The notes under the pieces were generated by a model that ran no database searches, was not told the origin of the DNA, and saw only the letters and a list, made by a program, of their open reading frames with translations. From the IMG/VR virus record IMGVR_UViG_2529292734_000012: a DNA stretch of 11,547 bases. One strand, written 5' to 3'. The stretch comes from a virus (taxonomy: Duplodnaviria > Heunggongvirae > Uroviricota > Caudoviricetes). Below are positions 1,497 to 7,559 of the stretch, in pieces (positions within the stretch are counted from its first letter, which is position 1; every line of letters begins with the position of its first letter). A program made the position numbers and the translations under genes.

Positions 1497-1573
1497 CGGC
1501 ACGTAGCGCAGTCTGGTAGCGCACCGTCATGGGGTGTCGGGGGTCGGAGGTTCAAATCCTCTCGTGCCGACCA
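1497..1573 (+). tRNA. proL: tRNA-Pro (anticodon GGG), 77 nt with encoded CCA
   Basis: Sequence CGGCACGTAGCGCAG...GGTTCAAATCCTCTCGTGCCGACCA has acceptor-stem complementarity (CGGCACG/CGTGCCG), a T-loop GGTTCAAATCC and an anticodon loop AUGGGGU. It matches the E. coli proL tRNA as I recall it. Confidence 0.9.
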
Positions 1574-1781: not shown

Positions 1782-3023
1782 ATGGCACGAAAAACCACCC
1801 CACTAACTATTACGGAGATCAAAAACGCACGACCAGGGGAAAAGGAATATACCCTGCAGGATGGCGGAGGATTATTTCTTCTGGTGAAGCCCTCCGGATC
1901 AAAAATCTGGCGTTTTACGTACTACCGCCCGGCAGATAAAAAACGGACTATTATCAGCCTTGGATCGCTAAATGATGTTTCCCTGTCTGATGCCAGAGAG
2001 CGACGGAATGAATACAGGTCACTCATAGCAAAGGGAACTGACCCACAGGACTACGAACGCCGGAAACGTGAAGCAGAGAGCAGGAAAAAGGGCAACACGT
2101 TCGAAAAAGTTGCCTTGGACTGGTACGAGATGAAAAAAGGCCAGAATCTGGCTTACAACACGATTAAGGATATCTGGCGATCCCTGGAAAAATACGTATT
2201 CCCGTACATCGGAAACACGCCAATAGATACCCTCACCGCTCGCCGCTTTGTTGAGATACTCACACCCATTAAAGCACGCGGCAACCTGGAAACTCTGAAA
2301 CGCGTTTTACAACGCATCAATGAAGTGATGGATTTTGCTGCCAACAGTGGGCTGATTGACATCAACACCGCCGCGAACGTCCGCAAGGCATTCCCTTCCC
2401 CCACTAAAAAGCATATGCCAACCATCCGACCGGAACAGCTACCGCAGCTAATGCACGATTTATCGGTCGCCAGCATAGAACGGCAAACCAGATTGCTAAT
2501 CGAGTGGCAACTGCTGACCGTAGCACGCCCAGCCGAAGCAGCCGCCGCACGCTGGGAAGAAATAGATCTCGATGCCGAAACATGGACGATTCCAGCCGGA
2601 CGCATGAAGATGCGCCGTGACCATGTGATCCCTCTTTGCGGTCAGGCGATGGCTGTACTGGAAACAATGAAGCCAATCAGCGCACACAGGGAACATGTTT
2701 TTCCCAGCCTTAAAAATCCAATACTGCCAATGAGCAGCCAGACCGCTAACGCTGCATTGCGCCGGATGGGATACGCTGGTGTGCTGGTGTCTCACGGATT
2801 ACGCGCCATATTCAGTACAGCAGCGAACGAGGAAGGATTCGAGCCGGACGTAATCGAGGCCGCACTCGCACACGTGGACACGAACGAGGTAAGGCGAGCA
2901 TATAACCGAAGTAACTACCTGGAAAAACGTGTAGTACTTATGCGCTGGTGGGGTGAATTTGTGGAAGCCGCAGCAACCGGAGTGACCATAGCCAGTGGTA
3001 AAAGGGGTATCCGTGCGGTGTAA
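1782..3023 (+). CDS. int: Tyrosine site-specific integrase, P4-like family (413 aa)
   Basis: Located about 200 bp downstream of a tRNA gene. N-terminal arm-binding-like region (GLFLLVKPSGSKIWRFTYY). C-terminal catalytic motifs HGLRAIFST (H-x-x-R) and RAYNRSNY (catalytic Tyr region). Confidence 0.9.
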   Translation: MARKTTPLTITEIKNARPGEKEYTLQDGGGLFLLVKPSGSKIWRFTYYRPADKKRTIISLGSLNDVSLSDARERRNEYRSLIAKGTDPQDYERRKREAESRKKGNTFEKVALDWYEMKKGQNLAYNTIKDIWRSLEKYVFPYIGNTPIDTLTARRFVEILTPIKARGNLETLKRVLQRINEVMDFAANSGLIDINTAANVRKAFPSPTKKHMPTIRPEQLPQLMHDLSVASIERQTRLLIEWQLLTVARPAEAAAARWEEIDLDAETWTIPAGRMKMRRDHVIPLCGQAMAVLETMKPISAHREHVFPSLKNPILPMSSQTANAALRRMGYAGVLVSHGLRAIFSTAANEEGFEPDVIEAALAHVDTNEVRRAYNRSNYLEKRVVLMRWWGEFVEAAATGVTIASGKRGIRAV

Positions 3024-3026
3024 CTG

Positions 3027-3076
3027 TACAAAAAACCAGTACAACCAGTGCAAACCATGCTAAACCATCGTATAAT
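3027..3076 (+). promoter_or_regulatory. Degenerate ~9-bp tandem repeats overlapping a putative promoter (-10 TATAAT at 3071-3076)
   Basis: CCAGTACAA / CCAGTGCAA / ACCATGCTAA / ACCATCGTA in tandem, immediately followed by TATAAT. Confidence 0.35.
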
Positions 3077-3136
3077 CGCCTATCTCCTCAACAGACAAGG
3101 AAAAACCCGACTCATGAGAAATCGAGATTTATTGAA

Positions 3137-3379
3137 ATGGTCTGGCACGAAAAATCATCCAATGTCTGCGGTGAAGGGCTGCAACTGGCGTTAATGGCAA
3201 ATCGTGAATTCTGGTCAACATACGATCCGGAAGACAAATCAACAGCCCCCACAAAACACGAGGTAGTCAGTTTTTTACGCTCGCGTGGCGCATCGAAAAA
3301 TCTGGCTGAAAGCATCGACAAGGTGCTGAGGCCCACCAGCCTTAAATGTGGTGGGCGACCTAAGAAGTGGAAACGGTAA
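3137..3379 (+). CDS. Hypothetical small protein (80 aa; alternative start at 3194), basic C-terminus
   Basis: ORF sits between a promoter-like element and a strong intrinsic terminator. There is no convincing Shine-Dalgarno sequence and no family was recognised. Confidence 0.35.
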   Translation: MVWHEKSSNVCGEGLQLALMANREFWSTYDPEDKSTAPTKHEVVSFLRSRGASKNLAESIDKVLRPTSLKCGGRPKKWKR

Positions 3380-3384
3380 TCACA

Positions 3385-3416
3385 ATAGCGGCCCCTTGCG
3401 GTCGCTATTTTTTTGC
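3385..3416 (+). terminator. Rho-independent terminator
   Basis: GC-rich hairpin AGCGGCC-CCTTGC-GGTCGCT followed by ATTTTTTTG. Confidence 0.65.
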
Positions 3417-3449
3417 AAAAAGAAAGCGTAATCAATGAGATAAAAAACA

Positions 3450-3484
3450 GTGAGTACCGTTTTAAAACGGTGAGTACTGTTTTT
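3450..3484. promoter_or_regulatory. Direct repeat GTGAGTAC(C/T)GTTTT x2 flanking a perfect 16-bp palindrome ACCGTTTTAAAACGGT, upstream of the AlpA-like gene
   Basis: Copies at 3450-3463 and 3470-3483; palindrome at 3456-3471. Candidate operator or activator site. Confidence 0.45.
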
Positions 3485-3548
3485 CCCGCCCTGCCCTGTT
3501 TTACCGTATTTACCACCGGAATACGCCGGATTAACGAGGTAAAACACG

Positions 3549-3755
3549 ATGGAAGTAATCAGAAAAATTCTTACCCGTCAGGAAGTAAAAAATATTCTGC
3601 GCATCAAGGCAGACAGTTCGCTACAGGACATGATCAACGCCGGAAAATTCCCGAAAGGCTTCAAAATCGGTCTGCGCCGTGTTGGCTGGTATGAAGATGA
3701 GGTGCAGGCCTGGTTGAAAGAACGCGAGGAAGAAGCGCGCGGAACGGCTGCGTAA
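3549..3755 (+). CDS. alpA: AlpA-family phage transcriptional regulator / excisionase-like HTH protein (68 aa)
   Basis: Short MerR-like HTH protein (LTRQEVKNILRIKADSSLQDMINAGKFPKGFKIGLRRVGWYEDEVQAWL) with the conserved Trp-containing C-terminus typical of AlpA/Vis proteins. GAGGT RBS. Position just after the integrase as in P4-like and PICI elements. Confidence 0.75.
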   Translation: MEVIRKILTRQEVKNILRIKADSSLQDMINAGKFPKGFKIGLRRVGWYEDEVQAWLKEREEEARGTAA

Positions 3756-3903
3756 TGGTGTGAGGTGTAACGCAATGAACATAACAAAAAGCGCCCCGTT
3801 GCCGGAGCGCCCTTGTGAACAATTAACCTGCTGCGAAAAAAATGGATCAGTGCAGGGGAATTATATCAACTGTGTGAAGAAGCGCCACTATTGCCGGATA
3901 ACA

Positions 3904-3934
3904 GGCAAAGAAAAGGCCACCAGTCACGGTGGCC
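3904..3934 (-). terminator. Rho-independent terminator for the minus-strand small-gene pair
   Basis: Perfect inverted repeat GGCCACC-agtcac-GGTGGCC (3915-3934); on the minus strand it is followed by TTTTCTTTG. Confidence 0.6.
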
Positions 3935-4013
3935 CTGCGACACAAATTTCGCGTTATCCCCAACGCATGAGCATCGCCAACAATGCCACATTTGCGGCTG
4001 GTGGGCAATGCAA

Positions 4014-4202
4014 TCAGTCTGGTTCAGTTCGTTGCCATACCTGCAATGAGCGCTTTTCCCTGTACTCTTTAAGAAATTGCTCAAGGGCAAAAGCACATGG
4101 CGCGAATCTTTCTGATTCATGCTCTATCTTTCTGCGCCGTCTTTTCCGTGCCGGTGATAATGTTTTGGTCAATTCTTTATCGGTCATTGTGTTGTCCTGC
4201 AT
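4014..4202 (-). CDS. Hypothetical small basic protein (62 aa; likely start at the second Met, 4187, giving 57 aa)
   Basis: AGGA lies 8 nt upstream of the ATG at 4187. KRRRRK basic cluster. Sits downstream of the RHH-like gene and upstream of the minus-strand terminator. No family recognised. Confidence 0.45.
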   Translation of the reverse strand: MQDNTMTDKELTKTLSPARKRRRRKIEHESERFAPCAFALEQFLKEYREKRSLQVWQRTEPD

Positions 4203-4244
4203 AGCAATGCGCCGTAGTTACTCACACCACGGCGCTGGTGATGG

Positions 4245-4424
4245 TTACTCCTGCTCTTTGGCCTTGCGGCGCTGGCGGCGTTTGATCTCGCCTTGCATTG
4301 ACGCAATGATGAATTGTGATGTGCTTTCGCCTGATTCTTTCACTGATTCCATGGCGTTTACTATTTCGTGTGGTACACGAGCCTTTAGAGCTTGTGATTT
4401 TGCGTTTGTTGTACCCGTTGCCAT
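4245..4424 (-). CDS. Small ribbon-helix-helix (Arc/CopG-like) DNA-binding protein, candidate repressor (59 aa)
   Basis: GAGGAA RBS 6 nt upstream of the ATG at 4424. Sequence MATGTTNAKSQALKARVPHEIVNAMESVKESGESTSQFIIASMQ fits a beta-strand/helix/helix RHH pattern. Divergent from the + strand operon promoter. Confidence 0.55.
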   Translation of the reverse strand: MATGTTNAKSQALKARVPHEIVNAMESVKESGESTSQFIIASMQGEIKRRQRRKAKEQE

Positions 4425-4485
4425 TTCTATTCCTCTGTTGGATTGGTGGGGGACAGTATACACAGAAAAAGCACAAATAAAACCC

Positions 4486-4526
4486 TTGACGTGGGCCACA
4501 CCTAAAGCATATAGTGGGCCACACCT
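4486..4526 (+). promoter_or_regulatory. Strong sigma70-like promoter for the rightward replication operon, with 13-bp direct-repeat operators overlapping -35 and -10
   Basis: TTGACG (4486-4491), 18-bp spacer, TATAGT (4510-4515). GTGGGCCACACCT at 4491-4503 and again at 4514-4526. Confidence 0.6.
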
Positions 4527-4552
4527 TGAGATTATCAAGGTGCATAGATGCA

Positions 4553-4587
4553 AAGCCCCGCAAGTGTCGTTACCACTCGCAGGGCTT
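4553..4587 (+). ncRNA. Stable stem-loop in the leader of the rightward operon (candidate regulatory or processed RNA element)
   Basis: 14-bp stem AAGCCCCGCAAGTG / CACTCGCAGGGCTT with two mismatches and a 7-nt loop; no following U-run. Lies about 30 nt downstream of the predicted transcription start. Confidence 0.3.
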
Positions 4588-4623
4588 CTAACCACCAACG
4601 ATAGCGAAAGTATCGAGGTAGCT

Positions 4624-4830
4624 ATGTTAAATCATACCACACACCCGCAAGGGCGGGACTCGTACAACCTGAATAAATACATCTGGCGTTTTATCGCCCT
4701 GAGCACGGCACAACCGCGTGTGATTACCATTGAGGCCACCAGCGAACAGGAAGCGCGTCAGCAATCTCCTGATGGCTGCGTGATGGTATTCGCTGCCCGT
4801 ATTCGCCAGGGGGTAGGCCATGTGCAATAA
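4624..4830 (+). CDS. Hypothetical protein (68 aa), first ORF of the rightward operon
   Basis: ATG at 4624 preceded by GAGGT. It is the C-terminal portion of an otherwise implausible 356-aa frame. Overlaps the next ORF start by 11 nt. Confidence 0.4.
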   Translation: MLNHTTHPQGRDSYNLNKYIWRFIALSTAQPRVITIEATSEQEARQQSPDGCVMVFAARIRQGVGHVQ

Positions 4831-6156: not shown

Positions 6157-7559
6157 AACTGGCACCGAACGTAAAACTGTTACCGAAAGATAAACACACT
6201 GAGGCGGTTATTTTTGCGGGTGATAATGCTCACTCCTTTGCAGAACATTACATGATTGCACAGGCCAAAAAAGCAGGCGATCCCATCCCTCCGGTTTACC
6301 TGGGCCGTTATCAGTTAAGCGAACTGGACAATTTACAGATTGTTGATGAAGGACGATACAGAGCAAAGGTCATACGCGCCGGAAACCTGGACGATATGCA
6401 GATGCTGACCATTGCCACCAAACTGGCGATCGCAGGTGTCCGGGAAGCGCGGTTACTTTCAGAGAATTTCGAACTACTGGAGGACTGGAGCGAGCAACTA
6501 CCCCGACTTAAAGAAACCTGGGAACGCGGGGAAAGTCTGGTCATGAATGGCGGAAAGCGAAAAATCACACTTCCCATCTCATGGGGTTCTGAGGGATTCG
6601 ACGCGCAGCAAAGCTACGTAATTAAGGGGCTTATTCCGGCTGAATCATTATGCAGCACCTACGGGGCCAGCGGTTCTTATAAATCGTTCCTGGCTATTTC
6701 CTGGTCGTGTCATGTTGCCACAGGTATAGCATGGGGAGGCCGCAGGGTAAGTAAGGGCGCGGTTATCTATATCGCTGGCGAAGGCAGTATGGGCGTAAAA
6801 CGCCGCGTTAAGGCGTGGGAGATAACCCACGACAAGGTGGTTACGGATTTGTGCATCGTTAACGCGCCTGTCTTCCCTGCATCGCCTGACTATGTGGAGC
6901 AGGTTATCAGGACCGCCGGATTAGTGCAAGACAGAACGGGCGAAAGGGTGCGGATGATTGTCATTGACACACTGGCCCGTTGCTTTGGTGGTCATGATGA
7001 AAATGACTCCCGCGACATGGGGGCGTTTATCCAGGGGTGTGACGCGATAAAGCAGGCCACGGGGGCCACGGTTCTGGTTGTGCATCATTCCGGCAAGGAT
7101 GAGACGAAAGGGGCGCGGGGTTCCAGTGCATTCCGTGCGGCGCTTGATGCTGAGTTCCGAATCAGTCGGGAACATTCAGAGGCTACGGCGCTGGTTGCAG
7201 CATGTACGAAGATGAAGGACGCGGAGGAGCCAAAAGAAAGCGCCTACGACCTTAAGAGCGTGGAGGTATTTACGGATCCTGAGGGTGAAGAAATCGTGTC
7301 CATGGTGGTGATTGACGTTCCCCGCGCCCCTGCTGAACTGGAGCGCATAGAGGAGGCCGGGAACAAGACGGAAAATCACACGGCTTTATGGGGTTGTATC
7401 CGGTCACGTATACAGCATGGTGATAAATGCACGATCCCGCTGCTACGTGATGACATGAAAAAGCTGGGATATGACACAAAACACCTTAAACGATGGTTAG
7501 CCAAACTGGAAAAAGACGGCGTGATTTGCGTCGATGGGGATGATGTTCACCCACTGTAA
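6153..7559 (+). CDS. Replication initiator/helicase-like P-loop ATPase (RepA/AAA_25-like RecA-fold), 468 aa
   Basis: Deviant Walker A GASGSYKS, Walker B-like MIVIDTLARCF, and VLVVHHSGKDETKGARGSSAF typical of RepA/AAA_25-type ATPases. Followed immediately by an iteron array. Confidence 0.75.
   Translation: MKLAPNVKLLPKDKHTEAVIFAGDNAHSFAEHYMIAQAKKAGDPIPPVYLGRYQLSELDNLQIVDEGRYRAKVIRAGNLDDMQMLTIATKLAIAGVREARLLSENFELLEDWSEQLPRLKETWERGESLVMNGGKRKITLPISWGSEGFDAQQSYVIKGLIPAESLCSTYGASGSYKSFLAISWSCHVATGIAWGGRRVSKGAVIYIAGEGSMGVKRRVKAWEITHDKVVTDLCIVNAPVFPASPDYVEQVIRTAGLVQDRTGERVRMIVIDTLARCFGGHDENDSRDMGAFIQGCDAIKQATGATVLVVHHSGKDETKGARGSSAFRAALDAEFRISREHSEATALVAACTKMKDAEEPKESAYDLKSVEVFTDPEGEEIVSMVVIDVPRAPAELERIEEAGNKTENHTALWGCIRSRIQHGDKCTIPLLRDDMKKLGYDTKHLKRWLAKLEKDGVICVDGDDVHPL

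Follow-up and report, generated by a model that had tools for sequence, protein, structure and literature searches.

The window analysed here is a stretch of 11,547 nt filed as IMG/VR virus record IMGVR_UViG_2529292734_000012, and its segment 3027-3416 lies between the integrase gene int and the regulatory gene alpA of an island of the phage-inducible chromosomal island (PICI) type. Substitution patterns identify the open reading frame (ORF) at 3137-3379 (plus strand) as a real protein-coding gene under purifying selection, encoding 80 amino acids (9.1 kDa, isoelectric point 9.7), and homology searches show that its product corresponds to just the C-terminal domain of a family without a name, which we call X. 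The best explanation of the whole joins a selected gene for this short form of X with a putative regulatory accessory role at the int-alpA switch; we regard it as about evenly balanced between holding and failing. A sequence-only reading of the segment had listed tandem repeats, a TATAAT box, an 80-aa ORF with a basic tail and a hairpin followed by a U-tract, and all of these are present where it had placed them. It had also delimited a transcript of about 300 nt, and the -10 hexamer with its repeats and the strong terminator indeed bound about 330 nt.

The ORF is supported as a gene by a ratio of non-synonymous to synonymous substitution rates (dN/dS) far below 1, the absence of insertions and deletions (indels), homologues, an AlphaFold2 model and an existing RefSeq entry, the hypothetical protein WP_000262088.1. 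The interval from the int stop to the alpA start was aligned across eight islands with about 75% DNA identity in int, and Nei-Gojobori counts were made over a core of 69 codons. Compared with the cq9 island, the core of the window showed 10 synonymous and no non-synonymous differences. Compared with the Nissle island, 39 differences at 48 synonymous sites stood against 28 at 156 non-synonymous sites (binomial P = 3e-10), and third codon positions held 39 of the 67 differences. In the diverged islands synonymous sites were saturated at a dN of about 0.2, and the other two forward frames gave dN/dS above 1 against the same islands. No gap columns were found in the core versus 36 in the 5' untranslated region (UTR) plus N-terminus, and the zone 3173-3379 was conserved and gap-free throughout. 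The frame has no stops, and an in-frame start is found in every island with the short form. Furthermore, the exact protein occurs on at least 999 contigs, and frameshifted or truncated versions on 1-6 only. A comparison of homologous islands had been suggested as a way of telling a conserved ORF from a conserved RNA; it showed the ORF to be conserved codon by codon and did not show conservation of an RNA, the 5' UTR being unalignable. An antisense ORF of 134 aa (3112-3516), which shares third positions with the sense frame, was rejected, as it matched no family and carried stops in four of the eight islands.

In a profile search of 1.84 billion cluster representatives, 610 proteins were recovered at E <= 1e-3 and 31 at E <= 1e-10, and the matched domain was the extreme C-terminus of proteins mostly 170-300 aa long. 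Identity in tblastn against six genome loci was 37-58%. Alignment to the long forms begins at about their residue 163, where the C-terminal domain starts, and the variable first 10-12 residues of the window protein correspond to the disordered linker of the long forms. The relatives are all annotated 'hypothetical protein', and neither the short protein nor any of more than 20 long relatives had a match in Pfam, PHROGs, NCBIfam or PADLOC. The family had no PDB match, no phage genome encoded it, and it belongs to no described family. The unit had been called an orphan, a term that does not suit a protein with a RefSeq entry, hundreds of cluster representatives and conserved synteny. A literature search for the RefSeq accessions or for a gene between int and alpA returned nothing relevant; the literature searched appears to contain no description of the X family, of its two forms, short and long, of its constant position ahead of alpA or of its link to the Rfam RNA RF02996.

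The order tRNA or tmRNA (transfer-messenger RNA), int, X, alpA was found in six loci, from Serratia, Erwinia, Enterobacter, an Enterobacteriaceae metagenome-assembled genome (MAG), a gamma-proteobacterial MAG and Sedimenticola. In these loci int is 25-37% identical and the X gene encodes 225-287 aa, with a C-terminus matching the window ORF. Long-form X in the same order was also found in E. coli, Pseudomonas, Gilliamella and Salmonella. X lay immediately 5' of alpA and 3' of a P4-type integrase gene in all ten island types examined; in Gilliamella an acetyltransferase cargo gene stands between int and X, and X still adjoins alpA. The published scheme for the integration zone of Gram-negative PICIs holds int and alpA only (PMC10111431). 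Thus, compared with the EcCICFT073-type zone of int plus alpA (PMC6092414, PMC10111431), the window island and many other Gram-negative PICI-type islands carry a third conserved gene directly 5' of alpA, in long or short form.

Long forms of X (for example E. coli P0202, 231 aa; Serratia oryzae P0160, 242 aa; Salmonella P0236, 233 aa) are 44-58% identical to the window protein over the C-terminal domain of about 65 aa, and share with its ORF the strand, the position between a P4-type integrase gene and alpA and the three-helix prediction. They differ in having an N-terminal domain of about 130 aa (HWKTVQEF..AALLLAGIDP) and a disordered linker, both of which the window protein lacks, and an RF02996 leader, in place of which the window form has the -10 and an A-rich repeat block. 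By this comparison, the -10/repeat block is a gain of the short form, and its losses are the N-terminal domain and the RF02996 leader.

AlphaFold2, run with eight homologues, predicted an all-helical three-helix bundle without a wing for the window protein, with a predicted local distance difference test (pLDDT) score of 76: residues 1-10 are disordered, helices span residues 12-26, 40-49 and 54-64, and a basic tail, GGRPKKWKR, follows. The model of full-length X (64 sequences, pLDDT 83) places an alpha/beta domain at the N-terminus and the bundle seen in the window protein at the C-terminus, with a disordered linker (131-159) between them. Conservation peaks in the loop FWSTYDP-x-D-x-x-TAP and in the ILRP that precedes the tail, and the family has a C-terminal signature of FWSTYDP..TAP...ILRP..G-R-x-K. 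An AT-hook has the core R-G-R-P with basic residues on its flanks; the window tail reads G-G-R-P-K-K-W-K-R, and some relatives have RGRP or KGRPRK. The absence of a wing sets the protein apart from Xis, Vis, TorI and AlpA, small excisionases or recombination directionality factors with an AlpA/MerR winged helix. No Pfam match to AlpA (PF05930) or HTH_17 (PF12728) was found for the window protein, and a relationship between X and AlpA was rejected at hhalign probabilities of 0.8% and 0.3%.

The RF02996 motif, known as the int-alpA RNA, was reportedly described as a candidate small RNA (sRNA) by Weinberg et al. 2017. It was found in four long-form loci with scores at or above the gathering threshold: Sedimenticola (L014 4397-4466, 60.4 bits), Pseudomonas (L021 3909-3979, 53.2 bits), Salmonella (L025 3918-3985, 50.3 bits) and E. 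coli (L015 4918-4985, 38.6 bits). In all four the motif ends 7-22 nt before the X start codon, and its unpaired conserved 3' end (AgGG) falls at the expected Shine-Dalgarno (SD) position of X. Because of this placement RF02996, although filed as an sRNA, looks like the 5' leader of gene X in these four loci.

In the window, the start of the unit is marked by four phased A-rich repeats of 9-10 bp (AAACCA-type, plus strand, 3030-3069), which overlap the -35 position and which we read by eye as AAAAAACCAGTAC / AACCAGTGC / AAACCATGCT / AAACCATCG. In Tandem Repeats Finder (TRF) the periods were 9 bp (3034-3053) and 10 bp (3043-3068), and the scores, 33-34, fell under the usual threshold of 50. A consensus -10 hexamer, TATAAT, follows at 3071-3076 on the plus strand; it is TATAAT in seven of the eight islands and TATAGT in the other one. 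The bases before it were read as TCG, that is, no extended -10 TG is present, and transcription is predicted to start near 3083. The zone 3024-3078, comprising repeats and -10, has no gap columns and is about 80% identical. As a conserved block standing beside unalignable 5' UTRs, in islands whose int genes are no more than about 75% identical, these features exceed what chance would give. The promoter claimed in the sequence-only reading is borne out in its consensus, conserved -10 but not in its -35; since a sigma-70 scan gave no acceptable match to a -35 TTGACA at a spacing of 16-18 bp, the promoter call rests on the -10 and its conservation. In a search for the repeat motifs elsewhere, AAACCATS was observed 4 times versus 1 expected, and AACCAGTRC, with one mismatch allowed, 14 times versus 4.3 expected; the placement of the AACCAGTRC copies was not interpretable, except for one copy inside the palindrome upstream of alpA described below. 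The int-alpA spacer of EcCICFT073 (L028 11161-11525), which is 365 bp long and holds no X gene, contains CA-rich repeat runs, GAAACAACGAGACACAACGACGAACAACAAGGAACAA and CACAAACACCCTGACACAATCCGACACAACCCAACCCAAT, that loosely resemble the AAACCA repeats of the window.

The zone downstream, 3080-3170, which holds the 5' UTR and about 12 codons from the start of the ORF, could not be aligned (26-47% identity, 36 gap columns). The 5' UTR is unstructured (fold z = -0.01). The ATG at 3137 sits 60 nt past the end of the sole -10, behind a variable leader of about 54 nt, which does not agree with the leaderless translation proposed earlier if that promoter is used. The lack of a convincing SD sequence was confirmed, the best duplex with the 16S tail reaching -3.0 kcal/mol. 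An out-of-frame upstream ORF (uORF) of 26 codons was found at 3114-3194 on the plus strand, with AAGGA 12 nt upstream of it and a stop that overlaps Met20 of the main ORF as TAATG. Although the 5' UTRs cannot be aligned, an equivalent out-of-frame uORF of 19-26 codons is present in all eight short-form islands, starting 14-23 nt 5' of the main start. In seven of the eight its SD is stronger than that of the main start, and in seven of the eight it ends in TAATG or TGATG overlapping Met20. Initiation at the uORF and at the main start should be mutually exclusive, and the uORF probably restrains translation of the main ORF or acts as its gate. The synonymous changes extend over the GEGLQLAL codons, which lie 5' of Met20, so the main start must lie upstream of these codons, where ATG 3137 is the sole start candidate in the window. 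In some genomes the Prokaryotic Genome Annotation Pipeline (PGAP) picks Met20 as the start, which is at odds with this synonymous pattern.

The unit closes with an intrinsic terminator at 3384-3416 on the plus strand, consisting of a hairpin (3384-3409) with a 10-bp stem and a 6-nt loop, followed by T7 (3410-3416). Its fold energy is -14.3 kcal/mol (z = -3.2). The sequence of this zone is not conserved; Nissle-type islands have there a different 10-bp hairpin with T7 (-15.1 kcal/mol, z = -3.6). The terminator would end the ORF transcript and any read-through from int before alpA. AlpA is the master activator of Gram-negative PICIs (PMC6092414). It activates its own gene, and its over-expression triggers excision and replication (PMC6092414), so read-through into alpA would be harmful. 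The next zone, made up of a near-perfect palindrome of 42 bp (AAAAACAGTGAGTACCGTTTT/AAAACGGTGAGTACTGTTTTT, 3443-3484; TRF, fold z = -6.3) in the alpA upstream region and of the alpA leader, is conserved. The palindrome itself is present in all eight islands and is probably an operator of the alpA promoter. Within its arms lies AAACAGTAC, similar to the AACCAGTAC/AACCAGTGC repeats at 3034-3051. In long-form islands, the hairpin after X and several sites 5' of alpA share one motif: AATAGTGCCCACC / GGTGGCACTATT in L015 (5690-5900) and GGTGGTCACC / GCCCACC in L009 (5200-5400). From this shared motif, the same protein may bind the X terminator and the alpA promoter.

In the scheme that we propose, a promoter of its own, weak or dependent on a factor, would drive the short-form X gene, and transcripts reading through from int would probably contribute. 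Translation would be weak, and the uORF would compete with the main start or gate it. The product would be a small regulatory accessory of the switch between integration and induction of the island; its most likely target would be DNA or a conserved partner (a host factor, Int or AlpA), contacted by way of helix 3, the basic G-R-P-K-K tail and the invariant FWSTYDP-x-D-x-x-TAP loop, and the terminator would insulate alpA from upstream transcription. Among the products offered in the sequence-only reading, a weakly translated small protein is compatible with this scheme and agrees with the evidence for coding; the other three (sRNA, leaderless product, toxin) did not hold. Several observations weigh against the proposed role. 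No X homologue was found in EcCICFT073 or EcCIMP1, the best-studied PICIs; GRP or GKP occurs in the last 30 residues of 20 of the 146 representatives, so that the tail is AT-hook-like in part of the family only; the main activity may reside in the N-terminal domain, which is missing from the short form; and the sigma-70 scan returned no promoters at the ORF and no -35 better than 3/6. Because EcCICFT073 and EcCIMP1 do without X, the gene is not required for the PICI cycle in general. EcCIMP1_002, a small coding sequence between int and alpA (PMC11773190), was considered as a counterpart and rejected; it is not homologous to X, and tblastn was negative.

A real though lesser possibility is that the product modulates proteins and not DNA. 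Its target would be a partner of full-length X, whether encoded by the island (Int or AlpA), by the host or by a helper phage, and where another island in the cell carries long-form X, the short form may compete with it or be dominant-negative towards it. Cutting a two-domain protein down to one domain is a well-known way of obtaining a competitor. The most conserved part of the family is a surface loop (W26 S27 Y29 D30 T36 A37 P38) and not the putative recognition helix, and long-form X islands are common in E. coli too, P0202 being present in 1119 blocks of the collection. However, the basic C-terminal tail and the high isoelectric point fit nucleic-acid binding at least equally well.

Going beyond the accessory role, X could be the missing control element of alpA in the many Gram-negative satellites that carry it, that is, a sensor or repressor encoded directly 5' of the master activator. 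In such a circuit the RF02996 leader would govern synthesis of the long form and the overlapping uORF that of the short form, and a helper phage would switch on the island through X. For the switching of alpA by helper phages in Gram-negative PICIs, the existence of a repressor has been called unclear (PMC6092414). We consider this extension rather unlikely, and with EcCICFT073 and EcCIMP1 lacking the gene, X cannot be the general answer to alpA switching. It is also unlikely, to a similar degree or slightly more so, that the ORF is accessory cargo outside island regulation, for instance with a product directed against phages or at the host, as a RecX-like modulator of RecA would be.

It seems quite improbable that deletion of the N-terminal half and the RNA leader turned a full-length X gene into this ORF as a relic without function. 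Such an origin would account for a match to the long forms that runs only from about residue 163 to the end, no remnant of the N-terminal domain being found anywhere in the window, and for the Salmonella island at the same tRNA gene, proL, where a full-length X of 233 aa with RF02996 lies beside an int that is 72% identical in DNA. Against a remnant stand the synonymous saturation among short forms at so low a dN, with no indels or stops and an in-frame start everywhere, and the conservation of the dedicated -10 block and terminator.

The sequence-only reading had also suggested a small regulatory RNA, and a unit analogous to the Rfam int-alpA RNA is conceivable in so far as RF02996 occupies the same int-alpA interval of related islands as the window ORF and a promoter and terminator bound a transcript of suitable outline. 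We hold it to be very improbable. No Rfam match, RF02996 included, was obtained for the unit: RF02996 was absent from 2980-3560 even at E <= 1, from the window as a whole at gathering (35.8 bits) and also from the other short-form islands. The 5' UTR is neither alignable nor structured, and conservation of the body is codon-phased, with the bias to third positions given above. Least credible is the toxin-like peptide of a type I toxin-antitoxin pair, which small size, weak SD and own terminator would fit, since the protein is hydrophilic (grand average of hydropathy, GRAVY, -0.76) with no hydrophobic or membrane segment, is homologous to C-terminal domains of soluble proteins of 200 aa, and has no conserved antisense element, the antisense strand not being conserved.

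The window is E. coli chromosome, running from the 3' part of yejM through a tRNA-Pro(GGG) gene into the island. This tRNA gene, proL (1497-1573, plus strand; ARAGORN, Rfam), is the integration site on the attL side, and yejM-proL-int synteny was found in every E. coli locus fetched. The integrase gene (1782-3023, plus strand) encodes a P4-type tyrosine integrase of 413 aa with the Pfam domains Arm-DNA-bind_3, Phage_int_M and Phage_integrase, and alpA (3549-3755, plus strand) encodes an AlpA-family regulator of 68 aa (PF05930). A 356-aa ORF (3760-4830) begins 5 nt past the alpA stop; its C-terminal 80 or so residues match PHROG transcriptional repressors (phrog_6196, E = 8.5e-52). It is followed by genes for a RepA-type helicase, capsid, decoration protein and small terminase (terS), all in one direction. 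This order matches the Gram-negative PICI layout (PMC6092414, PMC10111431) of int, alpA, a Bro/repressor-like zone, RepA helicase and capsid/decoration/terS, and by gene content and position the island is a phage satellite of the PICI type that has inserted into E. coli at tRNA-Pro (proL).

The segment 2900-3600 was present in 97 of 5426 complete E. coli genomes by megablast, and a relative of the 80-aa ORF in 374 of the 5426 by sensitive blastn. All eight related genomes that were fetched had the island at proL and the order int, small ORF, alpA. A C4 antisense RNA was found in eight of eight related islands (L004, at 6157-6244, L010, L011, L012, L014, L015, L021 and L025), and isrK and the c4-a1b1 target, which are immunity RNAs of the P4/P1 type, in some of these eight, not including L004; in the window none of the three was found. 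In a 90-aa protein from an NCBI record labelled Cooperia oncophora (P0011), residues 1-42 of the ORF are fused to the C-terminal part of AlpA. The protein represents a variant of the int-alpA locus with an in-frame deletion, and its occurrence in a nematode assembly suggests E. coli contamination. The island of strain 504239, near-identical elsewhere, departs from the window past position 4275, and because of this divergence the region 3' of alpA is considered mosaic.
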